Below are positions 11,709 to 42,125 of a stretch of DNA of 64,000 bases, one piece after another. The notes under the pieces were generated by a model. That model worked only from the letters and a program-made list of their open reading frames with translations, was not told the origin of the DNA and did not search any database. The translations under genes and the position numbers were made by a program. Origin of the DNA: an uncultured Bacteroidales bacterium (GTDB taxonomy: Bacteria; Bacteroidota; Bacteroidia; Bacteroidales; Paludibacteraceae); assembly GCA_900316995.1 (NCBI GenBank), contig ONEZ01000010.1:3712-67711 (forward strand), in the 5' to 3' direction. How positions within the stretch are numbered: the first letter of the stretch is position 1; the number at the start of each line of letters is the position of its first letter.

Positions 11709-12107
11709 GGGGCTGACTGGCTTTGACAGCGGGCAGAACCGGAATGTAAGCATGCAGAGCGTTGTAAGGGGGCTCTTTAATCTGAACTTTCAAACAATAT
11801 CTGGCGAAAATAACTTTGCTCTTGCTGCTTAATCGAATAATAGTAGATTAGCTTTATTCCGGCACAAGGTGCTGGATCAAGACATCTCCCAAACGCCCAA
11901 GTCACGAGGATGTTTGAACCAGGAGGTGCGGTAATATCGGGACTCGCCCTGAGTAGGCTTCTTACAAAGGGTTAAATTTTTAGAAGCTAAGGATACTCTC
12001 CAGTGGTCCGGGTCTTGGAGTATCACAAAAATTCAGGCCGGAATAAGCATGTAGAAAGCATTTTGTTTCCTCGTTTGGACGTGGGTTCAAGTCCCACCAG
12101 CTCCACA
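11709..12107 (+). ncRNA. ssrA: tmRNA (transfer-messenger RNA)
   Basis: The 5' GGGGCTGA pairs with the 3' ...GGACGTGGGTTCAAGTCCCACCAGCTCCA acceptor/T-arm. The internal tag ORF ggc gaa aat aac ttt gct ctt gct gct taa (11803-11832) encodes GENNFALAA*, the Bacteroidetes-type tag. A TATCTTTG box lies at 11682-11689. Confidence 0.93.
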
Positions 12108-20912: not shown

Positions 20913-20997
20913 GGAGAGATGGTAGAGTGGTCGATTACAGCGGTCTTGAAAACCGCCGTACCGAGAGGTACCGGGGGTTCGAATCCCTCTCTCTCCG
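20913..20997 (+). tRNA. tRNA-Ser (anticodon UGA)
   Basis: The acceptor GGAGAGA pairs with TCTCTCC. It has a long variable arm, the anticodon loop CT-TGA-AA and the T-arm GGTTCGAATCC. Length is 85 nt and CCA is not encoded. Confidence 0.92.
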
Positions 20998-21028
20998 CAA
21001 CGAGGATTTAAGGATTAATCCTATAGCA

Positions 21029-27081: not shown

Positions 27082-27723
27082 TCACGAGCGAATGCGAGTA
27101 AAGATACAAATATCCTTCAATCCGCACCCCTCACACTTGGGATTGCGGGCGGTGCAGGTGTAGCGTCCAAAGAGAAGAAACCAATGATGGGCTTTTGAAA
27201 GTATCTCCGCAGGAATATTTTTTGTGAGCACCGCCTCCACCTTGGCAGGAGTGTCCTCTTTCTCTGTAACCAGCCCAAGGCGATGTGAGACTCTGAACAC
27301 ATGTGTATCAACAGGCATGGCAGGTTTGCCAAACGCCACCGCCATAACCACATTGGCGGTCTTACGTCCCACTCCGGGCAGTTGGGTCAGCTCCTCCATA
27401 GTCTGCGGCACTACCCCGCCAAACTTCTCAACAAGAGTCTGGGCAAGCCCTTTCAGGTGAGCAGCCTTACTATTTGGGTAGGAAATCTCCTTAATATATT
27501 GGAATATTTCTGCATCGGTGGCACGGCTCATAGCCTCAGCATCAGGGTATGCCGCAAAAAGCGCAGGAGTGTTCTTGTTCACACGCTTGTCTGTACACTG
27601 GGCAGACAGCACCACCGCCACTATCAGTTCAAAAGGGTTTCTGAACTGAAGTTCACTCTCTGCATCGGGAAGCCGCGCCGCCAGCTCCTTCAACACAATA
27701 CTATAGCGCTCTTCTGTAGTCAT
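27082..27723 (-). CDS. nth: Endonuclease III
   Basis: It has the HhH-GPD motif (LTQLPGVGRKTANVV...VDTHV) and a C-terminal 4Fe-4S cluster loop CTARNPKCEGCGLKDIC. Confidence 0.95.
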   Translation of the reverse strand: MTTEERYSIVLKELAARLPDAESELQFRNPFELIVAVVLSAQCTDKRVNKNTPALFAAYPDAEAMSRATDAEIFQYIKEISYPNSKAAHLKGLAQTLVEKFGGVVPQTMEELTQLPGVGRKTANVVMAVAFGKPAMPVDTHVFRVSHRLGLVTEKEDTPAKVEAVLTKNIPAEILSKAHHWFLLFGRYTCTARNPKCEGCGLKDICIFTRIRS

Positions 27724-27983
27724 TATTAATTTTTATTGATTTTTTACCTCTTAATGTTGGTATTGCTTTAATTGCTGTTGCCATACTGATATGATTTGAT
27801 ACGGCAAAGATAGAATACAAATTTTTCCCGTGCAACACCATCAAAAGGCTTTAACGCAAAAACAAAATCTACTATACAAATCCATTTTGCTATATAGCAG
27901 TACACACAAGCAAAAAATAGCTTATTTTCAGCGGAAACACTATAAAAATCACAAGTTTCCGCTGGTTATAAGGCAAAAATTAC

Positions 27984-27991
27984 TATATTTG
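27984..27991 (+). promoter_or_regulatory. TAnnTTTG promoter box (TATATTTG) for the ATPase gene
   Basis: It lies 30 nt upstream of the ATG at 28022. A 10-bp-stem hairpin cagcggaaac...gtttccgctg lies just upstream at 27929-27964. Confidence 0.4.
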
Positions 27992-28021
27992 TAGCGGATT
28001 TAATATAAAACCATAGAGTTT

Positions 28022-29455
28022 ATGATAATAGGACGAGAAAAAGAGCAGCATGAACTGTTGAGCCTACTTGAGAAGGAAGAATCTCAGTTTTGCGCCGTAT
28101 ATGGCAGGAGACGCGTAGGTAAAACATATCTCATTAGAGAAACATTCAACTATCATTTTTGTTTTCAACACACAGGGGTGGCAAAGGGGACGCTGCGCCA
28201 GCAACTGACAGCATTCAGGAACTCTCTGACCGCAGCTGGAATGAAATGTGCGATACCAAACTCATGGATTGACGCATTTGAGTTGTTAAAGGAACATATC
28301 AACAACTCTCCTGCAGGTAAAAAAGTTCTATTTATAGATGAACTGCCATGGATGGATACTCCGAAGGGTAACCTGATAGGAGCCTTGGAAAACTTCTGGA
28401 ACGGATGGGCTACGGCACGCAAGGAGAAGGATATAATTCTCATTGTTTGCGGCAGCGCAACATCTTGGATTAGCAAGAAACTATTGAAGGATAAAGGCGG
28501 ACTCCGTGGACGACTGACCAACAGAATAAAGTTAGCCCCCTTTACACTACGTGAATGTGAGCTATTTGCTAAAAATGCAAATCTCGCCCTTGAGAGAAAA
28601 GATGTGCTGGAACTATATATGATACTCGGAGGAATACCCTATTACTGGAGTTTCTTAAGAAGAGGGCTTAGCGTAGCACAGAACATAGACCAACTGTTCT
28701 TTACAGAAACAGCCCAACTACGTGATGAATTTGACGCCCTCTATTCAGTACTGTTCAAACGTCCCGAGAACTACCTCAAAATCATTGAATGTCTTAGTGA
28801 CGGCAAACAGTCTGGAATGACCAGAGATGAGCTGCTCACTAAAAGTAAGCTCTCAGACGGAGGTACTTTCTCCACCGTATTGGAAGAACTGGAGGAATGT
28901 GGATTCATTCGTAAATTTACGTCTGCTGACACAGCAGAGATTAACGCGATATATCAGTTGATTGACAATTACACCCTATTTCACTATCTGTGCATCAAAA
29001 AGAACGCTTTCAGCGATGAGCATTACTGGTCAAACACAATAACATCCACAATGCACAACACATGGAAGGGGCTTGCTTTTGAGCGTGTATGCCTGCAACA
29101 CATACGCCAAATAAAAGCAACCCTCGGTATTTCTGGTGTGCAGACAAATGTCTGTTCATGGTTCACTCGTGGCACATCAGAGATACACGGTGCACAAATT
29201 GACTTAGTGATTCAACGTGCTGACGGATGTACAGATATTTGTGAAATGAAGCACTCTGCAAATGCGTTTACCATAGACAAAGATTACTCAGACAAGTTAC
29301 AAAACAAGATTTATGCATACAAAGAGCTGTCAAAAGACAAGAACACCGTTCATCTTGTAATGGTAACTACAAACGGAGTTGTCCATAATAGCTATTACAA
29401 CCTCATACAGAATGAGGTCACTATGGATGACCTGTTTGACAAAAAAAGTGGCTAA
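28022..29455 (+). CDS. AAA-type ATPase (Arch_ATPase-like) fused to a wHTH and a C-terminal DUF234/PD-(D/E)xK-like module
   Basis: It has the Walker A GRRRVGKT and Walker B LFIDELPW. The C-terminus has GLAFERVC...AQIDLVIQR...DICEMKHS, which fits a D...(D/E)xK nuclease-fold motif. Confidence 0.75.
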   Translation: MIIGREKEQHELLSLLEKEESQFCAVYGRRRVGKTYLIRETFNYHFCFQHTGVAKGTLRQQLTAFRNSLTAAGMKCAIPNSWIDAFELLKEHINNSPAGKKVLFIDELPWMDTPKGNLIGALENFWNGWATARKEKDIILIVCGSATSWISKKLLKDKGGLRGRLTNRIKLAPFTLRECELFAKNANLALERKDVLELYMILGGIPYYWSFLRRGLSVAQNIDQLFFTETAQLRDEFDALYSVLFKRPENYLKIIECLSDGKQSGMTRDELLTKSKLSDGGTFSTVLEELEECGFIRKFTSADTAEINAIYQLIDNYTLFHYLCIKKNAFSDEHYWSNTITSTMHNTWKGLAFERVCLQHIRQIKATLGISGVQTNVCSWFTRGTSEIHGAQIDLVIQRADGCTDICEMKHSANAFTIDKDYSDKLQNKIYAYKELSKDKNTVHLVMVTTNGVVHNSYYNLIQNEVTMDDLFDKKSG

Positions 29456-29500
29456 AAAAATTTTTTTAGCCACTCTCAATGCAATTTTATCTTACAGATA

Positions 29501-31120
29501 CTACTTAACCATAACCTTCACAGCCTCACCACCTATCTTTACCACATACACACCCGATGCAGGCACTGGGTTACCAACTGGCAGACCTGCTGTGTTGTAC
29601 ACTCTTATATCTGATGGCTCTTTCCCATTAACAGTAATCAACTTCTCACTTATAGAGATTGCATCCTTTATATTCTCTGAGGTGCTTTCATTTACATTCA
29701 CCAGATCTTCTATGCATTTAAAATTAGAGGAATCAAAATAGTTCCAACCATCCGCTATCATATAGTCAACAAGACTGGCACATGGCACATAAACTTCAAC
29801 ATCACTGCCTACATTTGCAAAGACATCGTTCGATGTTATAGTTGGCGGCATATCAGCACGACAAATAATTCTTTTAAGGCCAGTGCAGTTGGAAAATGCA
29901 TAGCCCTCTATTTCAGAGACTCCGCTTGGAATATCAACATTTTTTAAGTTTACACAATTTTTAAACAATTCAAAAGCAATCTTTGAAACATGTTCTGGGA
30001 TTGTAATATCCGTAATAGACGAACAATTCGCAAATGCAGCCCATTTAATATTATTCACACTTATAGGAATTACAATAGAAGACAAATTAGTACATGAAAA
30101 GAATGATCGTTCTCCTATTGAAACTACACCATTGGGAATCACAAACGAGTAAAGGCCTTCACAACCCTCAAAAGCTCCATTACCAATTGACAAAACCCCT
30201 TCTGGGATCATAGTATTTTTACATCCACAAACTAACGTATTGGAACTTGTCTCAATTATTGCATTACAGTTGCTGGTAGAATTGTAAATTGGATTATCTG
30301 GATGTACAATGATAGATGATAGATTTGTACAATATGAAAATGCTGATGGAGGTATATGCTCTACATTTTTAGGAATGAAAATTGCAGATAAACCTTCACA
30401 ATAAGAGAATGAACTGCCTAAATATCTAACAGTACTTGGAATTTCAACCGAGACCAATCTTTTACAATGCGAAAATACATCATCATTAATTACAGAAACG
30501 CCCTCATGCATTACAACAGATTCCAATTTTTCACAATTCTGAAACGCAAAACTTCCAATGTCACTGACATTTTCAGGTATCTCAATAGATGTTATATTTT
30601 TGCAACCATTAAATATGCCCTCAGAGACATACTGTAATCCATTAGGGAGCACCACTGGATCTGACAAATCTGTACATTCTCTAAATGCGGCGGCACCAAT
30701 ATTCAAAACACTATTTGGTATGTCTATTTTTAAAAGGCTTTTGCAATTATAAAAAGCTAAGACACCTATTTCCAACAAACTATTAGGAAAAATTACTGAT
30801 TGTAAATTCGTACAATCAGCAAACGCAGAATTACCTATCGATGTTATACCATTACTTATTGTAACCTTTGTTATGCCTTCTCTACCCTTACATGCATTAT
30901 CACCAATGGTCTTAACACCGTATGTTTTACCATCGTAGTTTACAACAACTGGGATTGTAACCTCACCCTCATAATCTTTGTCCTTGACAGACACTATTGT
31001 GGCATACTTGCCATCGTCTGAAGAATACTCTATGCCATCAACAACAAAGTTTGTTACAGCAGTAGCATTACATGAAACAGCGAACAATACCAGAACAAGA
31101 AAACGTCTAAATCTTTTCAT
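29501..31120 (-). CDS. BspA-type leucine-rich-repeat surface protein with a T9SS-type C-terminal sorting tail
   Basis: It has a signal peptide and ~16 repeats of the ~23-aa pattern I(P/E)..V..IG..AF..C..L.S(I/V). The C-terminal IRVYNTAGLPV....GVYVVKIGGEAVKVMVK resembles Por_Secre_tail. Confidence 0.8.
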   Translation of the reverse strand: MKRFRRFLVLVLFAVSCNATAVTNFVVDGIEYSSDDGKYATIVSVKDKDYEGEVTIPVVVNYDGKTYGVKTIGDNACKGREGITKVTISNGITSIGNSAFADCTNLQSVIFPNSLLEIGVLAFYNCKSLLKIDIPNSVLNIGAAAFRECTDLSDPVVLPNGLQYVSEGIFNGCKNITSIEIPENVSDIGSFAFQNCEKLESVVMHEGVSVINDDVFSHCKRLVSVEIPSTVRYLGSSFSYCEGLSAIFIPKNVEHIPPSAFSYCTNLSSIIVHPDNPIYNSTSNCNAIIETSSNTLVCGCKNTMIPEGVLSIGNGAFEGCEGLYSFVIPNGVVSIGERSFFSCTNLSSIVIPISVNNIKWAAFANCSSITDITIPEHVSKIAFELFKNCVNLKNVDIPSGVSEIEGYAFSNCTGLKRIICRADMPPTITSNDVFANVGSDVEVYVPCASLVDYMIADGWNYFDSSNFKCIEDLVNVNESTSENIKDAISISEKLITVNGKEPSDIRVYNTAGLPVGNPVPASGVYVVKIGGEAVKVMVK

Positions 31121-31218
31121 AATTAATTGATAATTAAATTAAAACATTGTAACTAAAGCGAATCAATAAAGACATAAAAAAGGCGAGACCTCAAAATTCA
31201 CTCTATCCATCTTGAGGT

Positions 31219-31360
31219 TCTAGCAAAACCTTACACTGAATAAAGCAACATGAAGCCTACGCCGTATGTAAAGCCCATGGCTAAAAACCATAGGCACAAT
31301 TACATACCCGTAGGCATTCATTGTCGCAACTATCCGTCAGTGTATTGAAAATTTGCTAGA
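31219..31360. repeat. Long imperfect palindrome (~142 bp, ~65-bp arms)
   Basis: Nested complementary blocks are ctagcaaa/tttgctag, acactga/tcagtgt, gcctacg/cgtaggc, gtatgtaa/ttacatac and gcccatgg/ccataggc. They are centred near 31285. Confidence 0.75.
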
Positions 31361-31435
31361 TTCCAAGATGCCGGACTGCACGTCAATAAACGCCTATTAT
31401 GTCGTGTGCAAAAGTATAAAAAAAGCGTTAAACCA

Positions 31436-31640
31436 CAAAGGCTTTAACCCTTTTTGTATTTCATACTAAATTTTATTACTTTTGCGGGTCAAAAACAATA
31501 AACTCATCTTAATTCAATGAGAGATTTCCAGCAGACAGATCAGAATGGTTTTTACGGCTCATTTGGTGGGGCGTACATTCCAGAGATATTGTACAAGACG
31601 GTAGAGAATCTTAAAGAGAGCCTATCTTAGTGCTCTTTTG
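31436..31640 (+). pseudogene. Duplicate of the trpB promoter and first ~37 codons (truncated trpB')
   Basis: It is ~98% identical by eye to 34139-34330. The ATG at 31517 gives [35 protein letters not shown], then an indel leads to a stop. Confidence 0.9.
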
Positions 31641-31641
31641 A

Positions 31642-31791
31642 TTAATCCATGTGCGGTGACGTTCGCTGTATCCGCTTATCTCTGACACCTGTTTGATGGT
31701 CTGTTTCCATCTGGTGACCGCTTTGTTTGCCCCATTTTATTACATCTTTTGAACCGCATTCCGGACACCTTTCGTGACGAGTTTTTTGCAT
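31642..31791 (-). pseudogene. 49-codon ORF with an N-terminal CPxCG zinc-ribbon motif; possible remnant of an IS transposase N-terminus
   Basis: The ORF reads MQKTRHERCPECGSKDVIKWGKQSGHQ.... A +1 frame continues as RWKQTIKQVSEISGYSERHRTWINQKS (HTH-like). It is too short for the ORF track. Confidence 0.3.
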
Positions 31792-32077
31792 AAAAAAATA
31801 ACCTTGATGAAACTAAATTCATCAAAGTTATTATAATTAGTTGTAATATAGATGATTACACCAATATCACCAACTACTTTTGTCTATTATACCTAACAAA
31901 TCCAATAGATAACAGAAAGTGGAACATTCTTCGCCTTGGCTGCACTCGCCCATGAGTGACGAGCCACGTACATGTCAATCAGCACTGGCGTTTTGCGTGG
32001 ATTTGATACCCGACATTCTTTATTTAAAAATCAGCGAAAAAGGGAAATTTTTCTTGATTTTCGCTGATTTTTAAAAG

Positions 32078-32122
32078 GCATACTGCACGGCAGCCGTATA
32101 AAACATATGCAGACCGCCGATG
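32078..32122 (+). pseudogene. Internal trpB fragment (codons ~282-296)
   Basis: It matches 35064-35108 with one mismatch and is fused directly to the trpA 3' fragment. Confidence 0.85.
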
Positions 32123-32365
32123 ACTTGAAAGCGCACGTAAAAATGCAGCAGGATGTATTATAGGGAGTAAGTTTGTGACTCTACTTGAAGAGGCAGGCGG
32201 CGATGCAGATAAAGCCTGCGCTGAGCTATTCAAAGCATTGGAGATTTAACACTGTCAACCGTTATTGTCAACCACATCTATTTCATTGCCGTCCTTGTCT
32301 GTAAACCTATATTGCAGGTACGGCATGTTTTGGTCTGGTAATATGTTAAGGCGGAACCAGTAGCC
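32123..32365. pseudogene. Fragment copy of the trpA 3' end (last ~41 codons, + strand) plus the convergent rng 3' end (last ~37 codons, - strand)
   Basis: It aligns with 40421-40663. The trpA part has one synonymous change. The rng part has ~11 changes and only one amino-acid change (K to R). Confidence 0.9.
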
Positions 32366-32403
32366 ACGAGCAGTTCAAAAGGGTTCCTGAACTGAAGCTC
32401 ATC
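32363..32403 (-). pseudogene. Short nth-like fragment (codons ~23-36)
   Basis: gccacgagcagttcaaaagggttcctgaactgaagctcatc compares with 27617-27658 gccactatcagttcaaaagggtttctgaactgaagttcactc, ~6 mismatches in 41 nt. It abuts the AbiEii stop codon. Confidence 0.6.
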
Positions 32404-33422
32404 TACATTGAGCAAGATAATTGACGAAAGCGTTCTTCAAGCAGATGTAACCTCTCAATGAGTGCGTTAAAAGACAACTTTTCTCCATAAATCATTGACT
32501 CGCACATATACTGATAATCCCTCTCCCATTCATTAATGTACTTTTCAGAAGGGACCAAGCAAAGATGCCTCCTAATATCGTCTTTATAGTCCACACCCAT
32601 AATGGGAGTAAAAAGTTCTCTGTGATGGCGTATGTTTTCCCATAATGCGTCATCAGCTATGGCTTCCTTAGCATAATTAGTATCCATCAACTTCTCTAGG
32701 TCATAAAGATGCCTTGAACGACGTTTTGCTTGAAGACTATCATGGTCAAGAGAAAACAGTTCATGCAAAAGAAATACCTTTTCCAAGAATGTCTTGCCTG
32801 GTGTTGCAGTTGGAATTGTCACATCAATAAAAGTCGTACTTATCTGTGGCAGTATTGCTTCAATAAGTGATGTCACTCTTAAATCATTTATCGGTTCCAT
32901 CAATGACCTTGCTCCAATCTCAAGAACAATCATCGGTTTTACGTATTCTATAAAAGATGGAATAACCGTCTGGTATTGGATATAAACATGTCTTGGTTCT
33001 GGATAGGTGCCATCCCCTTCTCCATCCGGCTGAACACTTACAATAAGCTTATCCTGTAGTCCATATTTGGAAATTTGAGAAATAAGAATCTCCGGAACTT
33101 TTTCCTTCACAAAAAGAGAAGATGCCTTGCGCAACTTCTTAAGCTGCTTTTTCGTAGGCTCCCCATCAAGCCCGAACAAAGCATAATCAATTGCCAAATC
33201 AATATCTTCAGAAAAACGACTAATCAGATTACTGTTCTTGCTCAGCGATGTACCGCCCTTAAAAATCAGGTGCTTCCCCAAATCGGAATCAAAGATTAGC
33301 TGAAGTACTACAGTTACCCAATAATCCTTCTCCAATGCCTGTTCAGGTAATCCCATAATATTTTTGCACTGCGTCAGCACAACCTGCTGTTGAGCAGTAG
33401 TCAATTCAGAAAAATTACTCAT
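32403..33422 (-). CDS. Nucleotidyltransferase AbiEii/AbiGii-family toxin (type IV TA / abortive infection)
   Basis: This 339-aa ORF has LIFKGGTSLSK...RFSEDIDL, the DUF1814/AbiEii NTase signature (GG[ST]...[ST]ED[IL]D). It overlaps the upstream antitoxin gene by 8 nt. Confidence 0.85.
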   Translation of the reverse strand: MSNFSELTTAQQQVVLTQCKNIMGLPEQALEKDYWVTVVLQLIFDSDLGKHLIFKGGTSLSKNSNLISRFSEDIDLAIDYALFGLDGEPTKKQLKKLRKASSLFVKEKVPEILISQISKYGLQDKLIVSVQPDGEGDGTYPEPRHVYIQYQTVIPSFIEYVKPMIVLEIGARSLMEPINDLRVTSLIEAILPQISTTFIDVTIPTATPGKTFLEKVFLLHELFSLDHDSLQAKRRSRHLYDLEKLMDTNYAKEAIADDALWENIRHHRELFTPIMGVDYKDDIRRHLCLVPSEKYINEWERDYQYMCESMIYGEKLSFNALIERLHLLEERFRQLSCSM

Positions 33423-34020
33423 ACAAACCTGATATTAAGTTTCTAATCCATACTGGCATAAGTTTCAAATCATGTATAGAGAATGGTTCAGGATGCTGTT
33501 TTATTACCGTTTGCAACCGTTTAATATGTTCATCATTAACATTACCTTCTCCCAATTCCCTCAAAGCAGTAGTAACAAGCATTGCAAATTTATCATTAAA
33601 CGCCAACTTCTTGGGTGACACATGCTTAAAAAGGATTCCCCTGCCATTACTAATGTTAAATTTCCTATTGCTCCCGTCTGTCAAATATACCACATTCATA
33701 GGCACTTGAGTAGATAAACCCAACATATTTTGAGCCAAAGCTCCAGCAGGGAAAATCTTAACCTTATCCCTTTTTGCTATAACCTGTGCTATCTCATCAT
33801 AAGAAGGAAGTAGCGGTCCTAACCCCAACTCCTTATCAATCTTGGGATAACAGTAAATACCATGGCACACATGTAAAAGCAATCCCTTCTGAACCATTCT
33901 GCTAATTGCTTTTTGTACAGAATCAGGATTCCCGTAATGCGAGAACTCATTAGTGGAAAATGCCGTACCCCTTCCGCGTTTACTTAATACATTAATTATT
34001 TTATCTTCAATAGATTGCAC
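33415..34020 (-). CDS. AbiEi-family antitoxin / transcriptional regulator (DUF6088-like)
   Basis: The N-terminal wHTH-like region reads SIEDKIINVLSKRGRGTAFSTNEFSHYGNPDSVQKAISRMVQKGLLLHVCHGIYCYP. I chose the GTG at 34020 because a minus-strand TAACTTTG box lies ~45 nt upstream. The track's TTG at 34098 would include the promoter. Confidence 0.75.
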   Translation of the reverse strand: MQSIEDKIINVLSKRGRGTAFSTNEFSHYGNPDSVQKAISRMVQKGLLLHVCHGIYCYPKIDKELGLGPLLPSYDEIAQVIAKRDKVKIFPAGALAQNMLGLSTQVPMNVVYLTDGSNRKFNISNGRGILFKHVSPKKLAFNDKFAMLVTTALRELGEGNVNDEHIKRLQTVIKQHPEPFSIHDLKLMPVWIRNLISGLYE

Positions 34021-34180
34021 TATATTATTCTTATATTTTTGTCGGTTTTTTAATGAAAATTTCCGACACAAAGTTATTATTTTTTGATTAAACCACAAAA
34101 AAGTGGCTAAGAAAAAATTTTAGCCACCCCCAATACAAACAAAGGCTTTAACCCTTTTTGTATTTCATACTAATTTTTAT

Positions 34181-34188
34181 TACTTTTG
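34181..34188 (+). promoter_or_regulatory. TAnnTTTG promoter box (TACTTTTG) of the trp operon
   Basis: It lies 33 nt upstream of the trpB ATG. The leader is short, with no leader peptide or attenuator hairpins visible. An identical box occurs in the duplicated copy at ~31478-31485. Confidence 0.5.
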
Positions 34189-34220
34189 CGGGTCAAAAAT
34201 AATAAACTCACCTTAATTCA

Positions 34221-35426
34221 ATGAGAGATTTCCAGCAGACAGATCAGAATGGTTTTTACGGCTCATTTGGAGGGGCGTACATTCCAGAGATATTGTACAA
34301 GACGGTAGAGAATCTTAAAGAGAGCTACCTTAGTGTGATAGAGAGCGAGTCATTCAAAAAGGAGTATCACGCACTACTTAAAGACTACGTGGGTCGCCCG
34401 AGCCCTCTATACTACGCGGCACGCATGAGCGAGAAGTATGGGTGCCGGCTATACCTTAAACGTGAGGATTTGAACCATACCGGCGCACATAAGATAAACA
34501 ACGCCATAGGTCAGGCGCTGCTTGCAAAACGGTTAGGCAAAAAGCGTATAATTGCAGAGACGGGAGCAGGACAGCATGGAGTGGCAACCGCTACTGTATG
34601 CGCCCTGATGAACCTGCCCTGCCGTGTGTACATGGGTGCGCTTGACGTTGAGCGCCAGCACGTTAACGTGGAGCGTATGCGTATGCTTGGCGCGGAGGTG
34701 TTCCCAGTTCAGAGCGGTAACAAAACCCTGAAGGACGCAACTAACGAGGCCATCAGGGACTGGTGCTGCCACCCTGCAGACACATTCTACATAATAGGTT
34801 CAACAGTAGGCCCTCACCCCTACCCCGATATGGTGGCACGCCTGCAAAGCGTTATATCAGAGGAGATAAAGTGGCAGCTTGAGGAGCATATAGGCCGTGA
34901 CTATCCAGACTACATACTGGCATGTGTGGGAGGCGGAAGCAACGCCGCAGGTGCCATATACCACTTCCTTAATAATGAGAAAGTGCGCATTGTGCTTGCT
35001 GAAGCTGGCGGACTGGGCATGGAGACTGGCAAGACCGCCGCATCGCTGCAGATAGGCACAACCGGCATACTGCACGGCAGCCGTATAAAACTTATGCAGA
35101 CCGCCGATGGGCAGATTGTGGAGCCATATTCAATATCGGCGGGGCTTGACTACCCTGGTACAGGTCCTCTGCACTGCAACCTCTATGAAACCGGTAGAGC
35201 CAAGGTGCTTGCTGTTAATGATGATGAGGCTCTGCAGGCTGCATTTGAGCTCACAAGGCTTGAGGGCATAATTCCGGCACTCGAGAGCAGCCATGCCCTT
35301 GCCCTGCTACCAAAAATGAAATTCAAAAAAGATGATGTGGTGGTTCTGAACGTAAGCGGGCGCGGTGACAAGGACCTTAACACATATCTGGCACATAAAG
35401 ATGAGATAGACTATGACAAAATTTAA
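34221..35426 (+). CDS. trpB: Tryptophan synthase beta chain
   Basis: It has HTGAHKINN (PLP lysine) and GGGSNAAG. The ORF is 401 aa. Confidence 0.97.
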
Positions 35427-36813
35427 ATACCATACAGAGTCAAAAACAATATTAGGCGACCTTCTCACACCTGTAAGTGCATACCTTAAGGTTAGGGACG
35501 CATATCCGCAGAGTGCGCTGCTTGAAAGTTCTGACTATCATGGCGGAGAAAACGCCAAATCCTTTATTGCACTACACCCAATAGGCACAGTGAGCATAGC
35601 ACACGGTACGGGACGTCTGGAATACCCCGATGGCAGCACCGTAGAACACAAGATTGAGGCTGGCTACACATCGGCGGACCTTATAAATGAATTTCTTAAA
35701 TCATTCAGCATAGAGGGCGCTGATGCAAAATATTGTGGACTTTATGGCTACACCTCTTTCAATTCAGTGCGCTATTTTGAAAATATAAAGGTGAAAGATG
35801 AGGTTCAGGAGAAGAATGACGCACCTGATCTGCTCTATATTCTCTACAAGGATGTGGTTGTGTTTAACCACTTTAGCAATGAGCTGACCATAATTGAGAT
35901 GCTCTCTGATGATGAGAGAAATGACCTTGACCAGCTGGAGCGAGACCTTAAAAACCGCCCGTATCAAGCGTACAACTTCAGCCCCGTGGGTGAGTGTACA
36001 AGCACGCTCACTGATGATGAGCACCGTGAGAACATACGCCGTGGCATTGCCCATTGCATGAGAGGAGACGTATTCCAGATAGTGCTGTCAAGAAGGTTCA
36101 TACAGCGTTACAGCGGTGATGACTTCAAACTATACCGTGCGTTGAGAAGCATAAATCCAAGCCCTTACCTCTTCTATTTTGATTTTGGCGGGTTCAGAAT
36201 ATTTGGCTCGTCACCTGAAACTCACTGCAAGATTGAGAACCGCCACGCCTACATTGACCCTATTGCAGGCACCACCAAGCGTACTGGCAATACGGAACAA
36301 GACCGCAAAAATGCGGAATACCTGCGAAATGACCCTAAGGAGAATGCAGAGCATGTAATGCTTGTGGATTTGGCGCGTAATGATCTGTCACGCAACTGCC
36401 ACGGTGTGCACGTTGATTTCTATAAGGATATGCAGTTCTACAGCCATGTGATTCACCTTGTGAGCCGTGTAAGCGGAGAACTTGACCCTGATGCAGACCC
36501 AGTGCAGGCATTTATTGACACATTCCCTGCCGGAACCCTTAGCGGTGCTCCAAAAGTGAGAGCCATGCAACTTATCAGTGAGTATGAACCGCACAACCGT
36601 GGAGCCTACGGCGGCTGCATAGGTTTTATTGGCTTTGACGGGAGCCTTAACCAGGCCATAACAATACGCACCTTTGTAAGCCGCAACAACGAGCTGTGGT
36701 TCCAGGCTGGCGGCGGCATTGTGGCAAAGAGCAATGTGGAGTATGAGCTACAGGAGGTAAATAACAAGTTAGGGGCGCTGAGCAAAGCAATAATAATAGC
36801 AGAAACATTATGA
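35413..36813 (+). CDS. trpE: Anthranilate synthase component I
   Basis: LLESS..., [12 protein letters not shown] and [14 protein letters not shown] are chorismate-binding motifs. Confidence 0.95.
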
Positions 36814-37376
36814 AAAACATTGTAATCATAGATAACTATGACTCATTTACATACAATCTGAGTCACCTTACAAAAGAGCTTGGCGCAAAAGTCACAGTAT
36901 ATAGGAATGACAAGTTCCAGTTACCTGATTTAGAAGCTTTTGATAAAATAATACTATCCCCTGGCCCTGGCATACCAAGCGAGGCGGGGCTCCTTCTTGA
37001 CACCATACGATGCTACGCTGGCAAGAAACCTATATTGGGTGTATGCCTTGGACATCAGGCCATAGGAGAGGCGTTTGGCGGCACACTTACAAACCTAAGT
37101 GAAGTATTCCATGGCGTAGCCACCCCGATGCACATAGTAGCAAATGATTACATCTACAGCAGTCTGCCAGATACCATTGAGGTGGGACGCTACCACTCAT
37201 GGGTGGTGAACCGTAATGGTTTACCTGAATGTCTTGAGATTACAGGCGTGTCAGATGAAGGCTACATCATGTCACTGCGTCATAAGGAGTTTGACATCCG
37301 TGGCATACAGTACCACCCTGAGAGCATACTAACAAAGGATGGGCGTGTAATTCTAAAAAACTGGATTGAAAAATGA
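36810..37376 (+). CDS. trpG: Anthranilate synthase component II (glutamine amidotransferase)
   Basis: It has the GATase-1 triad context ILGVCLGHQAIG and YHPES. The ORF is 188 aa. Confidence 0.95.
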   Translation: MKNIVIIDNYDSFTYNLSHLTKELGAKVTVYRNDKFQLPDLEAFDKIILSPGPGIPSEAGLLLDTIRCYAGKKPILGVCLGHQAIGEAFGGTLTNLSEVFHGVATPMHIVANDYIYSSLPDTIEVGRYHSWVVNRNGLPECLEITGVSDEGYIMSLRHKEFDIRGIQYHPESILTKDGRVILKNWIEK

Positions 37377-38371
37377 AAACATACCTGACAAGACTTGCCG
37401 GAGGTGACACACTAAGCCGTGAAGAGACTCGTGAAATACTGCTTCGCATTACACGTAGCGAACTGAATGACTGCCAGATAGCAGCGTTTCTCATGGCCAT
37501 TCAGACAAGAGGCATAACTGTGGATGAAATATTAGGTCTGAGAGACGGAATATTAGAGACAGGCAAGAGTGTGGATTTATCTGATTATGGCAACACTCTT
37601 GACATTGTGGGTACTGGCGGCGATGGCAAGAATACATTCAACATTTCAACCTGTGCGGCTTTTGTTATAGCCGGAGCAGGATATAAAGTAACCAAGCACG
37701 GCAACGGAGGCAGCACCAGTGTAAGCGGTGCAAGCAACGTGCTCATGAACCACGGTGTAAAGTTCACAGATAACATAGACACGCTGCGCCGCTCACTTGA
37801 CAAGGCTGGAATCTGCTATCTGCACGCTCCCCTATTTGCCTACGGCATGAAGTTTGTGGGGCCTGTGCGCAAGGCATTAGGCATACCCACCTGCTTTAAC
37901 ATCTTAGGCCCGCTTGTAAACCCTTCAAGGCCTAAAAGTTCACTCCACGGCACCGCCACTCCGGCACAGATGCGCCTTTACACCAACGCACATCAGAAAA
38001 TAGGAGACAATTTTGGTGTACTCAGCAGCTATGACGGCTATGATGAAATATCACTTACCAGCGGTTTCAAACTTATAACAAACAACTTTGAGAAGGTGTT
38101 CACCCCTAAAGACCTTGGGTTCAACTACGTGGAGCCTGCCGAAATATATGGTGGTGAGACTGCCGCTGATGCCATGAAGATATTTGACAGCGTACTGGAG
38201 GGCACATCCACCGAGGCGCAGAAAAACGTGGTGCTTGCAAACGCAGCCTGCGGCATAAGCATAATGGACCGCAACTTGAGCATTGCAGAGAGCGTGGCTC
38301 TGGCTCGTGAGTCATTAGAGTCAGGCAAAGCGCTAAGCACACTAACGAAATTTATAGAGATAAACTCATGA
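37373..38371 (+). CDS. trpD: Anthranilate phosphoribosyltransferase
   Basis: DIVGTGGDGKNTFNIST and KHGNGG are motifs of this family. Confidence 0.95.
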   Translation: MKTYLTRLAGGDTLSREETREILLRITRSELNDCQIAAFLMAIQTRGITVDEILGLRDGILETGKSVDLSDYGNTLDIVGTGGDGKNTFNISTCAAFVIAGAGYKVTKHGNGGSTSVSGASNVLMNHGVKFTDNIDTLRRSLDKAGICYLHAPLFAYGMKFVGPVRKALGIPTCFNILGPLVNPSRPKSSLHGTATPAQMRLYTNAHQKIGDNFGVLSSYDGYDEISLTSGFKLITNNFEKVFTPKDLGFNYVEPAEIYGGETAADAMKIFDSVLEGTSTEAQKNVVLANAACGISIMDRNLSIAESVALARESLESGKALSTLTKFIEINS

Positions 38372-39168
38372 CACAGGACATTCTCTCAAAAATAACTGCT
38401 CAAAAAAGGATTGAGGTGGCTAAAGACAAGTCTTTAACCCCGCCTGCGGTGCTTTATAAATCAGTGGAACTCCTAATGTCTGAAAACTCTGACACACGGA
38501 GCATGAGTGGCTCTCTTATGGCAAGCGCACACGGAATTATTGCAGAGTTTAAGCGCAAAAGCCCGTCAAAAGGCTGGATTCACCCCGATGTGGAGCCCGA
38601 GGATGTGGTGCCACGCTACGCAAAAGCAGGCGCAGCCGCACTAAGCATACTCACTGACACAGATTTTTTTGGAGGATGCAGGGAGTTTATAAAAAGAGTG
38701 CGTCCCATGGTGCAGACCCCCATACTGCGCAAGGATTTCATAATTGACGAGTACCAGATATTTCAAGCCAAAGAGATAGGAGCTGATGCAGTGCTGCTAA
38801 TTGCAGCCTGCCTGAGCAAACAGGAGTGTGAGAGCCTTATAAGCACGGCGCACAACCTGGGTATGGAAGTTCTGCTTGAAATGCACAGCAAGTCTGAACT
38901 TGACTACGCCACACTTGGCGCTGATATGCTTGGCATTAACAACCGCAATCTTGGAACCTTTGTAACAGACGTGAACAACTCATTCAAAATGGCAGAGCTT
39001 CTGCCCGAGGATAAACTTAAAGTGAGTGAGAGCGGCATAAGCAACCCTGAGACCATAAAGCAGTTAAGAAATGTAGGATTCAGAGGTTTCCTTATAGGAG
39101 AAACATTTATGAAAGAGAGCGACCCTGGTGCAGCATTGGAGAATTTTATAAAAAACTTAGCTGAATGA
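38368..39168 (+). CDS. trpC: Indole-3-glycerol phosphate synthase
   Basis: IIAEFKRKSPSKG, LSILTD..FFGG and INNRNL are motifs of this family. Confidence 0.94.
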   Translation: MTQDILSKITAQKRIEVAKDKSLTPPAVLYKSVELLMSENSDTRSMSGSLMASAHGIIAEFKRKSPSKGWIHPDVEPEDVVPRYAKAGAAALSILTDTDFFGGCREFIKRVRPMVQTPILRKDFIIDEYQIFQAKEIGADAVLLIAACLSKQECESLISTAHNLGMEVLLEMHSKSELDYATLGADMLGINNRNLGTFVTDVNNSFKMAELLPEDKLKVSESGISNPETIKQLRNVGFRGFLIGETFMKESDPGAALENFIKNLAE

Positions 39169-39782
39169 TAGTAAAAGTATGCGGTATGCGTGAGCCTGAC
39201 AATATTAGGGATGTGGAGGCTCTCCACCCTGACATGATGGGCTTTATATGCTGGGAGAAATCTCCCAGATATGTAGCCGCAGTGCCGTCATACCTTCCTA
39301 AGTGCCAGAGAGTGTGCGTTTTTGTAAATCCTTCAATTAACTACGCACTCCAGATGGCGGATAGTTTTAAGGCAGATTATCTACAGCTGCACGGCAGTGA
39401 GACGCCAGACTTCTGTCAGGAGCTAAAGCAAGCCACCGGACTTAAAATAATTAAAGCCATTTCCATTGCAAACTCTGCTGACATTGAAAAAAGCAAAAAA
39501 TACCAAGGTATAGCAGACATTATGCTTTTTGACACCAAGTGCGCCACGGTGGGCGGCAGCGGAGTAAAATTTGACTGGAGCATACTTGACAGTTACTCTG
39601 GCACCACCCCGTTCCTGCTTTCAGGCGGGATAGGACCGGATGACGCAGAAAGTATACTATCCATAAAACACCCAATGTTTGCAGGAGTTGACCTTAACAG
39701 CGGCTTTGAAAGTTCTCCGGCAGTAAAAGATATACCAAAACTAAAAAAATTCATAACAAGCATACGATATGAACAGAATTAA
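39165..39782 (+). CDS. trpF: Phosphoribosylanthranilate isomerase
   Basis: It has (I)VKVCGM, LQLHG and LSGGI motifs. The ORF is 205 aa. Confidence 0.92.
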   Translation: MIVKVCGMREPDNIRDVEALHPDMMGFICWEKSPRYVAAVPSYLPKCQRVCVFVNPSINYALQMADSFKADYLQLHGSETPDFCQELKQATGLKIIKAISIANSADIEKSKKYQGIADIMLFDTKCATVGGSGVKFDWSILDSYSGTTPFLLSGGIGPDDAESILSIKHPMFAGVDLNSGFESSPAVKDIPKLKKFITSIRYEQN

Positions 39783-40545
39783 CCAACTATTTGCAAACAA
39801 GAAACAGAATATTCTCTCCATATATTTTTGTGCAGGCCATCCAAAGGCCGGAAACTGCGCAGAGGTGATAACATCGCTGGAGCGCAACGGCATAGACATG
39901 ATAGAAGTGGGCATACCGTTCAGTGACCCTATGGCAGACGGTCCGGTAATACAAAGTGCAGCCACAACCTCACTAAGGAACGGGACAACACTTAGCGGGA
40001 TATTCTCAGAACTTGACGGCATACGCCGGGATGTGAGCATACCGCTGGTGCTTATGGGCTACCTTAACCCCATATACCACTTTGGGTACGAAAAGTTTTT
40101 CAGTAAATGCATTGAGACTGGCATCGACGGAGTAATAATACCAGACCTGCCTTTCAAAGACTACATAGAAGAGGTGAAACCCATAGCAGACCGCTATGAC
40201 ATTCGAGTAATCATGCTTATAACACCTGAGACCAGCGATGAGCGCATACGCTTCATTGACAGCAATACAGACGGATTCATCTATATGGTTTCAAGTGCAG
40301 CCGTAACAGGCGCACAGAAGGAGTTTGATGCGGCAAAACAGGCATACTTCAATCATGTTAACAGCATGAATCTGACACAGCCGAGAATGATAGGTTTTGG
40401 TATAAGCAACCGCGCCACACTTGAAAGCGCACGTAAAAATGCAGCAGGATGTATTATAGGGAGTAAGTTTGTGACTCTACTTGAAGAGGCAGGCGGCGAT
40501 GCAGACAAAGCCTGCGCTGAGCTATTCAAAGCATTGGAGATTTAA
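39769..40545 (+). CDS. trpA: Tryptophan synthase alpha chain
   Basis: IEVGIPFSDPMADGPVIQ and GFGIS are motifs of this family. Confidence 0.95.
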   Translation: MNRINQLFANKKQNILSIYFCAGHPKAGNCAEVITSLERNGIDMIEVGIPFSDPMADGPVIQSAATTSLRNGTTLSGIFSELDGIRRDVSIPLVLMGYLNPIYHFGYEKFFSKCIETGIDGVIIPDLPFKDYIEEVKPIADRYDIRVIMLITPETSDERIRFIDSNTDGFIYMVSSAAVTGAQKEFDAAKQAYFNHVNSMNLTQPRMIGFGISNRATLESARKNAAGCIIGSKFVTLLEEAGGDADKACAELFKALEI

Positions 40546-40550
40546 CACTG

Positions 40551-42125
40551 TCAACCGTTATTGTCAACCACATCTATTTCATTGCCGTCCTTATCAGTAA
40601 ACTTGTACTGCAGGTACGGCATATTCTGGTCTGGCAGTATATTTAGGCGGAACCAGTAGCGGCGGCGCATCTTGTGACGCAGGCTGATAAAGCCCTTGGT
40701 CATATAGGCATAAACAAACGGATGAACCCACAGAGTGGCACGCTTTACATTCATAACCTTGAACACAAAGTAAGCCTTGCGCTCCAGAAGGTCTGTGAAA
40801 AGTATTGATGAAGTGGTTTTACCTGAGCCTCCGCACGTAGGGCAAATCTCCTTAGTGTTTACGTATGTGGCAGGACGCACTCTCTGGCGTGTAATCTGCA
40901 TAAGTCCGAATTTAGAGAGCGGCAGAACGTTGTGCTTTGCACTGTCATTCTTCAAGTTCTCCACCATACGCTCATAAACCTGCTGTTTATGCTTCTCATT
41001 ATGCATATCTATGAGGTCAATTACAACTATGCCGCCCATATCTCTGAGCCGCATCTGATGCGCCACTTCATCTACTGCCATCATATTAACCTCAAAAGCG
41101 TTTGACTCCTGGCTATCCTGGTCTTTCTGTATGCGGATGCCACTGTTTACGTCAACCACGTGCATAGCCTCAGTAGTGTCAATAACCAAATACGCACCCT
41201 TCTTGAACGGGACTATCCTGCCAAATGACGCCTTAATCTGCTTGGTTACGTTATACACGTCAAACAGCGGAAGTTCATCATCGTAGAACTTCACAATATC
41301 ACTTTTGGTAGGCTCTATAAGGCTAATGTATGATTTTATCTCCTCATAGAACTCACGGTCATTCACCACGATGCTCTCATAGTTGCGGTTAAGGTTATCT
41401 CTGAGCACCGCCTCCGCCCTGTTAATCTCCTCAAGGATGAGAGAGGGAACCGTTTTACGCTTTGCGGCGATGCGAGCCAGAGCCTCCTCCCAGCGCTTTA
41501 CTAAAATGACAAGTTCATTCTTAAGCTCATCAGCCTCCTTGCCCTCAGCCACAGTACGCACTATGGCGCCGTAATTCTTTGGACGGGCAGCATTTACAAT
41601 CTTTCTAAGGCGGTTACGCTCCTTACTCTGCACAATTTTCTGTGAAACAGACACCTTATTTGAGAACGGCATCAGGACAAGCGAGCGTCCGGCAAGACTT
41701 ATCTCAGTAGTAAGCCTTGGACCTTTGGTGGATATAGGTTCCTTGGTCACCTGAACCAGTATCTCCTGCCCTGCTGTAAGTGTATTTGAGATAAGACCGT
41801 CTTTTGTGGTCTCCTTCTGGAAATCCACCTTGTTCATGGATAGCTGCCGACCCTTACCCTTAGGCATATCTTGCAGGAAACGGTCTATTGTGAAGAAATT
41901 AGCTCCCAGATCAAGGTAGTGCAGAAAGCCCTCTTTCTCATACCCCACCTCCACGAATGCCGCATTAAGACCTGGCAAAAGTTTCTTAACCTTTGCAAGA
42001 TATATGTTTCCAACGGCAAATGTGGATGTTCTGCTCTCTTTAGTGTACTCCACAAGCGTGGAGTCTTCTGTAAGGGCTATATCAATTGTATCAGAAGATA
42101 CGTTTAATAAAAGTCTGCTTTCCAT
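40551..42125 (-). CDS. rng: Rne/Rng-family ribonuclease (RNase G-like)
   Basis: It has an S1 domain (VGNIYLAKVKKLLPGLNAAFVEVG), a DNase-I-like catalytic region (VIDTTEA..VDVNSG) and a Zn-link CPTCGGSG. I used the ATG at 42125 (MESRLLLNV). Confidence 0.9.
   Translation of the reverse strand: MESRLLLNVSSDTIDIALTEDSTLVEYTKESRTSTFAVGNIYLAKVKKLLPGLNAAFVEVGYEKEGFLHYLDLGANFFTIDRFLQDMPKGKGRQLSMNKVDFQKETTKDGLISNTLTAGQEILVQVTKEPISTKGPRLTTEISLAGRSLVLMPFSNKVSVSQKIVQSKERNRLRKIVNAARPKNYGAIVRTVAEGKEADELKNELVILVKRWEEALARIAAKRKTVPSLILEEINRAEAVLRDNLNRNYESIVVNDREFYEEIKSYISLIEPTKSDIVKFYDDELPLFDVYNVTKQIKASFGRIVPFKKGAYLVIDTTEAMHVVDVNSGIRIQKDQDSQESNAFEVNMMAVDEVAHQMRLRDMGGIVVIDLIDMHNEKHKQQVYERMVENLKNDSAKHNVLPLSKFGLMQITRQRVRPATYVNTKEICPTCGGSGKTTSSILFTDLLERKAYFVFKVMNVKRATLWVHPFVYAYMTKGFISLRHKMRRRYWFRLNILPDQNMPYLQYKFTDKDGNEIDVVDNNG

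Follow-up and report, generated by a model that had tools for sequence, protein, structure and literature searches.

Introduction

Textbook tandem duplications, such as those of Salmonella and E. coli, are lost cleanly by recombination between their long repeats. Illegitimate duplications and deletions typically leave joins that are blunt or have 2–4 bp of microhomology, and homology-facilitated illegitimate recombination imports foreign DNA with one homologous anchor. At defence-island hotspots, cassettes turn over between conserved core genes. Tandem (segmental) duplications in bacteria are treated in PMC11111574 and AbiE, a type IV toxin–antitoxin and abortive infection system, in PMC3985639. 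For the arrangement described below, our search of the literature returned such general papers and no exact precedent.

Here we analyse a stretch of 64,000 nucleotides from an uncultured Bacteroidales bacterium (the window), in which pieces of trpB, trpA, rng and nth lie upstream of the functional trpB and beside an AbiE gene pair. As in tandem segmental duplications, there is one head-to-tail join (2-bp microhomology), the copies are colinear and co-oriented, and redundant parts are gone. Unlike in those duplications, the copy here appears to have been whittled by several illegitimate deletions to islands of 39–242 bp and to have received insertions of an IS, an integrase island and a defence cassette, and the scar has persisted long enough to spread among strains. 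The interval between nth and trpB resembles a defence hotspot in that strains of one species hold alternative cassettes there, and differs in that turnover left legible scars of core genes, so that one rearrangement can be reconstructed.

Fragments of the core locus upstream of trpB

We searched positions 31200–32700, and then 31121–34138, by BLASTN, each against the rest of the window. The four matches that an earlier note had read from the letters were reproduced at the same positions, and a fifth fragment (E′) was added. The fragments, together with the resident partner of fragment A, are as follows.

31435–31632, plus strand: fragment A, pseudo-copy of the trpB promoter and codons 1–36
32077–32122, plus strand: fragment B, trpB codons 282–296, with one non-synonymous difference (L to H)
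32123–32254, plus strand: fragment C, trpA part, the last 41 trpA codons with the stop and a 5-bp spacer
32255–32364, minus strand: fragment C, rng part, the last ~36 rng codons
32363–32401, minus strand: fragment D, nth codons 24–36
34097–34138, plus strand: fragment E′, copy of the PDC-S27 ATPase/LRR terminator hairpin, source 29442–29484
34139–34335, plus strand: R, resident functional trpB promoter and first 36 codons, direct-repeat partner of A

Fragment A matches 34139–34335 at 97.0% over 198 bp (E = 2e-91). Its stop, which the earlier note had ascribed to an indel, is created by a 1-nt insertion at 31621 that leaves a 37-aa ORF (31517–31630). Fragment A is contiguous with the LRR–trpB spacer, in the same arrangement as in the empty-site strains L018 and L186; the frameshift is common to all copies of A, and these copies carry third-position polymorphisms that are also present in functional trpB alleles. 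Fragment B matches 35064–35109 at 97.8% (E = 2e-16) and fragment C as a whole (32123–32364) matches 40419–40660 at 95.0% over 242 bp (E = 3e-108). The join between them is equivalent to a deletion of 5,309 bp (35110–40418), which bears out the clean loss of about 5.3 kb proposed from the letters. Fragment D matches 27617–27655 at 89.7% over 39 bp (E = 7e-9), and 1 nt separates its end from the AbiEii stop codon. Fragment E′ is 84% identical to the window's own copy of the hairpin and 90.5% identical to the L018/L098 alleles; the motif is present at these two sites only, with 0 expected by chance.

E′ is joined to the trpB promoter via 3–4 bp of microhomology, and at 32363/32364 rng codon 516 is joined to nth codon 36 with a 2-bp overlap (GC). 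Overall, the junctions are blunt or have 2–4 bp of microhomology. All five fragments match their sources in the +/+ orientation, and their order fits 27617–40660 in one circular permutation: D (27617)–[AbiE]–E′ (29442)–R (34139 onward) and A (34139)–B (35064)–C (40419), with a single wrap at the join of C and D. By our own combinatorial estimate, such an order and orientation would arise at random about once in 384 arrangements. The fragments, with their order, orientation and junctions, are direct observations. The colinearity and the single join point suggest one duplicated unit, in agreement with the idea of a collapsed second copy of the neighbouring core locus.

27617–40660, no strand assigned: inferred duplicated unit of 13,044 bp, running from nth codon 36 through the PDC-S27 ATPase, LRR and trpBEGDCFA to rng codon 516

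Remnants between the fragments and the AbiE pair

The fragments are separated by mobile-element remnants, a palindrome and the defence genes. Four features had been missed in the earlier note, namely E′, the IS1/IS1595 Zn-ribbon remnant, the C-terminal integrase remnant and the palindromic terminator at 32023–32075.

31642–31791, minus strand: remnant of an IS1/IS1595-family transposase, N-terminal zinc-binding domain only, ~50 codons
31797–31832, minus strand: terminator-like hairpin with a 15-bp stem and a T-run (terminator scan), between the integrase and IS remnants
31893–31974, minus strand: remnant of a Bacteroidales tyrosine integrase, C-terminal ~27 codons (YVARHSWAS..PLSVI)
31975–32076, no strand assigned: segment X, with a long palindrome (32023–32075) and A/T runs on both sides
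32403–33422, minus strand: intact abiEii nucleotidyltransferase toxin (Pfam PF08843, 1.9e-30; PADLOC AbiEii, 5.6e-90)
33415–34098, minus strand: AbiEi antitoxin/regulator (DUF6088 and AbiEi_4 in Pfam; PADLOC AbiEi, 2.5e-60)

The transposase remnant is frameshifted and is cut off at its junction with A. It matched NCBIfam NF050000 with 28.9 bits (cut-off 28), or 35.3 bits after correction of the frameshift, and gave a weak match to Pfam Zn_ribbon_InsA. A complete element would combine terminal inverted repeats with a transposase that has both a DDE domain and an N-terminal zinc-binding domain; the latter domain alone is present at 31642–31791 and the remaining gene is missing, so a complete IS was rejected in favour of a remnant. 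The integrase remnant matched annotated site-specific integrase genes in tblastn searches (E about 1e-4 in 7.3 Gb) and matches an Alistipes integrase at 16 of 24 residues. Segment X had no source match in the window, in the fetched conspecific loci or in the cassette of strain L011, and it matched no Rfam family. Its palindrome (MFE −28.7 kcal/mol, z −2.95) is probably a bidirectional terminator, as predicted from folding.

The abiEi and abiEii genes overlap by 8 nt. Because a DUF1814-type AbiEii is preceded by AbiEi in what is predicted to be one operon, the pair is assigned to the AbiE system, whose bicistronic layout, overlapping genes and strong profile matches it shares at the level of sequence. 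The PADLOC match of AbiEi begins at residue 28 and gene callers give a product of 201 aa; translation probably begins at the ATG at 34020. The patchwork does not belong to this system; the AbiE pair is only its neighbour and probably the selected cargo. The intact pair occupies the exact position that the PDC-S27 defence ATPase holds in the first copy. Among strains of this one species, the nth–trpB interval carries PDC-S27, AbiE or an AbiEi_2/NTase-like/PP2C cassette, or is an empty site, and its BspA-type LRR genes are also variable.

Substitution pattern and strain haplotypes

The rng part of fragment C differs from the rng gene of this strain by 11 nucleotides in 10 codons, of which nine are synonymous changes and one replaces K by R, and the single difference in the trpA part is synonymous; codon analysis therefore upheld the earlier count for both pieces. 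Over all fragments, third codon positions hold 14 of the 18 substitutions (binomial p = 1.4e-4), a departure from an even spread over codon positions, and the Nei–Gojobori method gave sd 15 and nd 3 (pN/pS 0.05, Fisher p = 1e-8). This is divergence of the kind found between functional alleles, as the earlier note had held, and the fragments appear to derive from a functional allele and not from decay in place. Fragment C is without sign of decay, since its 3 non-junction differences from L004 all fall at third positions. In a highly recombining species, synonymous-only differences in a pseudo-fragment do not prove foreign DNA, since the change may lie in the resident allele.

Comparison with conspecific strains narrowed the source. 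Fragment C is the resident trpA–rng haplotype of L004 at 238–239 of 242 positions (3–4 differences), with only 2–3 differences between its rng part and the L003/L004 rng allele, and fragments A and B lie 1–3% from conspecific alleles. The 5% divergence of C within the window is thus explained by the species' allelic diversity and homologous recombination, not by a distant donor. The expectation that the fragments fall outside the allelic range of the species accordingly failed for A, B and C, and the proposed origin in another lineage did not hold for C. Only D and E′ suggest, by their divergence, a more distant and unsampled lineage: D differs from every sampled nth allele at 3–5 of 39 bases, and the two fragments lie 8–16% from all sampled alleles.

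Fragments B, C, D and E′ occur in strict linkage with AbiE, and every sampled carrier has them in 100% identical form. The carriers were found through exact protein identity of AbiEii, Nth or the ATPase and hence form a related strain set with biased sampling. All four fragments are absent from the empty-site strains. Arrival together with AbiE, another claim of the earlier note, thus fits these four but not A, which is shared with haplotype L011/L014. In the latter, A, the IS remnant and the integrase remnant are followed by an unrelated 3,031-bp cassette and then by R, with none of B, C, D or E′. Over A and the two remnants, the window and L011/L014 are 96.3% identical. L011 retains 6–8 more integrase codons (~35 codons in all) and ~24 bp more of R than the window, so both cassette borders of the window are derived trims of an L011-like structure. 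Identical borders in the window and L011, which would have indicated a site-specific mechanism, were rejected because finer alignment shows L011 extending farther on both sides.

The empty-site strains L018 and L186 have the order ATPase–hairpin–LRR–spacer–trpB with a single A/R copy. These strains are 2–8% diverged throughout, and the empty site was therefore rejected as a recent product of A × R excision. Positions 29501–34129 are ~100% identical among strains whose right flank diverges by 3–5% from 34130 on, and L098 carries the same X-B-C-D-AbiE-E′ block in a different LRR background. In L001, a further 68-bp deletion (32309–32376), flanked by AAA, crosses the join of C and D, and erosion is thus continuing. 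Haplotype L185/L188 has independently acquired a patchwork, made of trpB 5′ pieces and nth–ATPase spacer copies; scars have formed at the locus more than once. Like the junctions, the pattern of substitutions, the comparison of haplotypes and the AbiE linkage are observed directly.

Origin of the patchwork

We consider it probable, with real room for doubt, that the stretch is a non-functional scar, the remnant of a duplicated 13,044-bp segment that was later trimmed by deletions. The duplication, the sequence of steps and the absence of a function are what we infer; our analysis found no evidence that the patchwork has a function. The genome concerned would by then have had an older arrangement ahead of trpB, in which two ~200-bp copies of its promoter and 5′ end (A/R) enclosed what was left of an integrase-bearing island and an IS. 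A head-to-tail duplication, either tandem or by the topologically identical Campbell-type insertion of a circularised conspecific segment, would then have formed the novel join of rng codon 516 to nth codon 36 at the 2-bp microhomology. With each gene present in one copy too many, the surplus would have been lost in several steps. In the left copy, deletions may have taken the segment from trpB to trpA, sparing A, B (46 bp) and C (242 bp) alone. The AbiE pair would have taken the place of the PDC-S27 ATPase and the nth 5′ end in the right copy, which would also have lost the LRR gene, the spacer and the inner island, so that just D (39 bp) and E′ (42 bp) were spared. The end points of the deletions would be functional boundaries: a position 1 nt away from the abiEii stop, the terminator hairpin and the sequence immediately before the trpB promoter. 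The differences from the resident genes would be allelic, contributed by a functional conspecific allele and by later homologous recombination among strains.

Several points weigh against this sequence of events. It takes at least four separate deletions, each leaving an island of 39–46 bp, which is many events; no source was found for segment X; and A and R, beside an integrase remnant, could be an attL/attR pair of separate origin. Because D and E′ are 8–16% off and C only ~1.5%, the source genome would itself have been a recombinant mosaic, or the pieces would have different histories. No uncollapsed or less-collapsed intermediate was found among the sampled strains, in which short-read assemblies would break at such a structure.

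The earlier note had favoured import of foreign homologous DNA, and import and in-place duplication in an L004-like ancestor, with block or flanks recombined later, give the same synonymous pattern. In its strictest form, import would mean that the block X-B-C-D-AbiE-E′ had collapsed beforehand in a divergent donor, entered an L011-like recipient as a finished unit and replaced the earlier cargo by homology-facilitated illegitimate recombination, anchored in the trpB promoter and gene and joined illegitimately inside the integrase remnant. We regard this as unlikely, although it deserves serious attention. The block borders are sharp relative to L011, in which more of the ancestral sequence survives at either border; strains whose right flanks are 3–5% diverged have the block in identical form, with the break at 34130; D and E′ are not close to any sampled conspecific allele; and L098 has the block in another LRR background. 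A non-homologous cassette beside a trpB anchor, with the other border illegitimate and in a pseudogene, is also what the mechanism would produce, but the block would hold collapsed pieces of the same locus that the mechanism alone leaves unexplained. Import would still need the same duplication and collapse in the donor, and so shifts the place and not the nature of the events. Moreover, C is a conspecific (L004-type) allele, and the identity of the block also extends over A, both mobile-element remnants and the LRR gene (29501–31974), so that ordinary homologous exchange of the whole haplotype fits as well as import of the 2.2-kb block alone. Nor was a donor found: AbiEii relatives in metagenome contigs do not exceed 55% identity and have no DNA in common with 31633–32076, and a search of 31633–34138 against PLSDB plasmids gave no match.

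The shortness of the patches (39, 42 and 46 bp), their direct joins with 0–4 bp of microhomology and the position of every template within ~8 kb would suit template switching in one replicative step (MMBIR/FoSTeS-like), during break repair or AbiE insertion. We think this improbable, because the allele-type synonymous differences imply that the patches were not copied from the present sequence of this strain. Deletions in a duplicate would be expected to leave pieces that are strictly colinear and all in one orientation, whereas template switching need not do so, and the 68-bp deletion in L001 shows that stepwise erosion occurs. Slightly less credit still goes to the reading of A and R as attL and attR of an integrase island that targeted the trpB 5′ end and brought a replacement promoter, the other fragments being host DNA from imprecise excision. 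Like end-of-gene islands, the locus has direct repeats of ~200 bp that flank variable cargo (two cassettes in two haplotypes), an integrase remnant adjoining A and a downstream copy that keeps trpB functional, and an imprecise circle would likewise join rng to nth. However, only ~27–37 integrase codons survive (~27 in the window); the repeat is long and 3% diverged, and the cargo includes additional parts of the host locus. In 79 other Bacteroidales species, no further piece of TrpB was present within 10 kb of trpB, which therefore does not act as a recurrent att site. An att pair would account for A/R but not for E′ or for the D–E′–R colinearity, unless a duplication-like intermediate is added. 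An assembly chimera, in which reads of co-existing strains were joined, can be practically dismissed. Short-read contigs do often end inside repeats (L006 is exactly 32123–40505), but identical junctions and private variants recur in contigs from at least seven independent samples, three long contigs (71–224 kb) span the whole region with both the fragment and the resident copy, and the junction k-mers cannot be built from resident loci.

Possible roles and significance

The patchwork is a genuine rearrangement scar, resolved in detail, at a hypervariable defence/LRR locus; it is of an ordinary kind and raises no new biological question. It offers a natural example of how a defence hotspot is remodelled, in that a large, redundant duplication tolerates insertion of AbiE in place of PDC-S27 and deletion bias then trims the duplicate to functional boundaries. 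For annotation and metagenome assembly, the repeats explain why contigs break near the trp operon in this rumen species.

An active role of the retained pieces, as homology arms or as antisense RNA, seems to us a long shot. As homology arms, the A/R (198 bp) and C (242 bp) repeats could allow RecA alone to gain, lose or excise the AbiE block as a 2.7-kb circle, which would make it a within-species mobile defence cassette that carries pieces of its own landing site. As to antisense RNA, fragments B, C and D separate abiEii from the predicted bidirectional terminator in segment X, and the abiE mRNA would have a 3′ UTR that is antisense to trpB over 46 nt and to the 3′ end of trpA over 127 nt, with 99% complementarity to the trpA mRNA. 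Expression of the defence module could then be coupled to the trp operon.

The TTTG / TAnnTTTG promoter inside A/R is our own reading of the letters; a sigma-70 promoter scan, uninformative for Bacteroidota, returned 8 sites against 10 expected.

Five diverged fragments of the neighbouring locus surround the AbiE pair

BLASTN of the patchwork region against the remaining window sequence recovered all four matches proposed in the earlier note (fragments A to D), with coordinates essentially as given there and E-values of 7e-9 to 3e-108. A fifth fragment, E′, was seen once the query was extended to 31121-34138.

Fragments, their matches in the window, and remnants between them
31435-31632: fragment A, matching 34139-34335 (97% over 198 bp)
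31642-31791 (-): IS1/IS1595-type transposase remnant, N-terminal zinc-binding domain (NCBIfam NF050000)
31797-31832: terminator-like hairpin between A and B
31893-31974 (-): C-terminal end (~27 codons) of a Bacteroidales tyrosine integrase (tblastn matches in genes annotated as site-specific integrase)
31975-32076: segment X, ~100 bp between the integrase remnant and B, with a strong palindrome at 32023-32075
32077-32122: fragment B, matching 35064-35109 (97.8%)
32123-32364: fragment C, matching 40419-40660 (95% over 242 bp)
32363-32401: fragment D, matching 27617-27655 (89.7%)
34097-34138: fragment E′, matching 29442-29484; duplicated terminator hairpin from between the ATPase and LRR genes

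Fragment A runs from the trpB promoter region through 36 codons, after which a 1-nt insertion leads to a stop. No gap separates B from C, and their junction is equivalent to a 5,309-bp deletion, in agreement with the ~5.3 kb suggested previously. The hairpin motif of E′ occurs only at its two listed sites, with 0 expected by chance. The transposase remnant scored 28.9 bits (cut-off 28), or 35.3 bits once its frameshift was corrected, and the integrase remnant was identical to an Alistipes integrase at 16/24 residues. No relatives of segment X were detectable in the window, in conspecific and other contig sequences, or in Rfam. Its palindrome (-28.7 kcal/mol, z -2.95) is long, near-perfect and flanked on either side by A/T runs. 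It separates the transcript from the A promoter from the convergent abiE operon and is probably a bidirectional terminator.

Profile searches identified the neighbouring genes as thrS, nth, an ATPase_2 gene, a BspA-type LRR gene, AbiEii, AbiEi/DUF6088, trpB through trpA, rng and HU. PADLOC confirmed AbiEii (5.6e-90) and AbiEi (2.5e-60). The ATPase_2 gene (28022-29455, +), which lies between nth and LRR, was a near full-length match to PDC-S27 (E 9e-193), a candidate defence gene in PADLOC; the nth-trpB interval is thus a small defence island. The LRR gene (29501-31120, -; 539 aa) is hypervariable between strains: contigs of the same species carry a 62%-identical version (L018) or versions of 517 aa (L186), 973+339 aa (L098), and 1234 and 1538 aa (L185). 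Conserved sequence restarts after it ~28 bp upstream of fragment A.

Fragment order is consistent with a head-to-tail duplication

None of the five fragments is inverted relative to its source, and together they follow genomic order: A (34139), B (35064) and C (40419) on the left; on the right, D (27617), E′ (29442) and then R (34139), the resident trpB promoter. The only wrap-around is at the C|D boundary, where rng codon 516 is joined to nth codon 36 with a 2-bp overlap. This boundary corresponds to the join point that a head-to-tail duplication of 27617-40660 (13,044 bp) would be predicted to leave, and we estimate that the observed order and orientation would arise by chance in ~1 in 384 cases. 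The slot between D and E′ holds AbiE in the inferred second copy, and the nth 5′ end and PDC-S27 in the first. Junctions are blunt or show 2-4 bp of microhomology, and several coincide with functional edges: only 1 nt separates the end of D from the abiEii stop, and E′ is joined just upstream of trpB promoter elements that we read as Bacteroidetes-type -33/-7.

Fragment C carries a conspecific allele

The mostly synonymous pattern described in the earlier note was borne out by formal counting: across all fragments, Nei-Gojobori analysis gave 15 synonymous versus 3 non-synonymous changes (pN/pS 0.05; Fisher p 1e-8), with 14/18 substitutions at third positions (p 1.4e-4). The rng part of C holds 11 differences in 10 codons (9 synonymous, one K to R), its trpA part a single synonymous difference, and the nth piece (D) two synonymous changes and one I to L. 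The pattern had been attributed to a foreign lineage, which does not hold for C: it differs from the window's resident copy at 12 positions but from that of the conspecific L004 at only 3-4, the three non-junction differences all being at third positions. Judged by its sequence, C shows no decay. Conspecific strains differ by 3-7% in the trp region and by up to 15% at the trpA 3′ end. The divergence stressed in the earlier note is therefore allelic diversity within the species that recombination has shuffled. For D (3-5 differences in 39) and E′ (4-7 in 42), no sampled allele came close, and both may derive from an unsampled, more divergent lineage.

Three haplotypes at the LRR-trpB site

The window comes from an uncultured Bacteroidales of the rumen, a species represented by RUG163 (L018; TrpB 99% identical). 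In the next relatives TrpB identity is 86% at most, and nth-trpB-rng synteny is absent. Among the many contigs from independent samples retrieved by exact-protein look-ups, three haplotypes were found. The empty type (L018 and L186) reads ATPase-hairpin-LRR-spacer-trpB, with a single copy of the A/R sequence. The window type was read in 21 contigs by the AbiEii look-up alone. In it, E′ has at most one variant, and B, C and D are invariant (100% identity), save in L001 (position 11046), where the 68 bp of window 32309-32376, spanning the C|D join and flanked by AAA microhomology, are missing; erosion is therefore still ongoing. Recurrence of the junctions in independent samples, with three contigs of 71-224 kb covering everything, excludes an assembly artefact.

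The third haplotype (L011/L014) carries A and the IS and integrase remnants, then an unrelated 3,031-bp cassette, then R; B, C, D and E′ are all absent from it. Its cassette (L011 2944-5454) encodes AbiEi_2 (328 aa), a 302-aa protein without a Pfam match and a PP2C_2 phosphatase (211 aa). PADLOC models matched none of these genes, and the cassette is possibly a toxin-antitoxin or defence module not yet described. A truncated copy lies at L185 9876-11678. Between haplotypes the cassette is 98-99% identical and is found at two different positions.

From A through the IS and integrase remnants, the second and third haplotypes are 96.3% identical, and L011 extends further than the window by 6-8 integrase codons and by ~24 bp of R. 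Both cassette borders in the window are thus derived trims of an L011-like structure, and A, contrary to the earlier proposal that the fragments came with AbiE, did not arrive with it. All A copies have the frameshift, yet they share third-position polymorphisms with functional trpB alleles, which indicates gene conversion or recombination. Across strains (window 31540-31603 versus L003/L098), all six differences fall at third codon positions, and the run 31570-31603 agrees with L004's functional trpB allele; this pseudo-copy apparently undergoes conversion by, or recombination with, functional alleles. Block 29501-34129 is ~100% identical among the window, L001, L003 and L004, and 3-5% divergence starts exactly at 34130, so the haplotype was exchanged or inherited recently relative to its right flank.

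A second, independent patchwork was observed in another haplotype (L185 7486-7600, 11755-11827 and 11907-12042; also L188). It fuses 26 bp of the trpB promoter, ~12 bp read as trpB codons ~15-19, and codons 57-84, and includes extra copies of the nth-ATPase spacer and LRR 3′ end adjoining the truncated AbiEi_2 cassette. This hypervariable defence/LRR locus has thus acquired such scars repeatedly.

Proposed history and significance

The most economical history would have five steps. An older event would have produced A/R and the integrase and IS remnants upstream of trpB; a 13-kb head-to-tail duplication would have followed, in this lineage or a conspecific donor; AbiE would have displaced PDC-S27 and the nth 5′ end, both redundant, in one copy; serial illegitimate deletions would have trimmed redundant DNA back to functional boundaries; and homologous recombination would then have mixed the alleles among strains. 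Import of an already collapsed block is inseparable from duplication in place, but it would still require the same duplication in the donor. Origin of the patchwork in one step by template switching, or from an att site, is less likely.

The fragments show no signs of function: they are short, carry frameshifts or lie out of frame, and are deleted to varying extents. With the repeats as homology arms, the AbiE cassette could possibly be gained or lost in a RecA-dependent way; the abiE transcript might also extend through B, C and D to hairpin X and so carry an antisense 3′ UTR. The patchwork is not a new kind of element; it adds a new, well-resolved example of processes already known, namely segmental duplication, deletion bias and defence-island turnover.

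Elsewhere in the window, a tmRNA gene (11709-12106, +; tag GENNFALAA) and a tRNA-Ser(TGA) gene (20913-20998, +) have no association with the patchwork. Two very large ORFs lie downstream of HU, at 42699-47507 (-; 1,602 aa) and 47693-57007 (-; 3,104 aa), the former with faint cadherin-like matches in related contigs.
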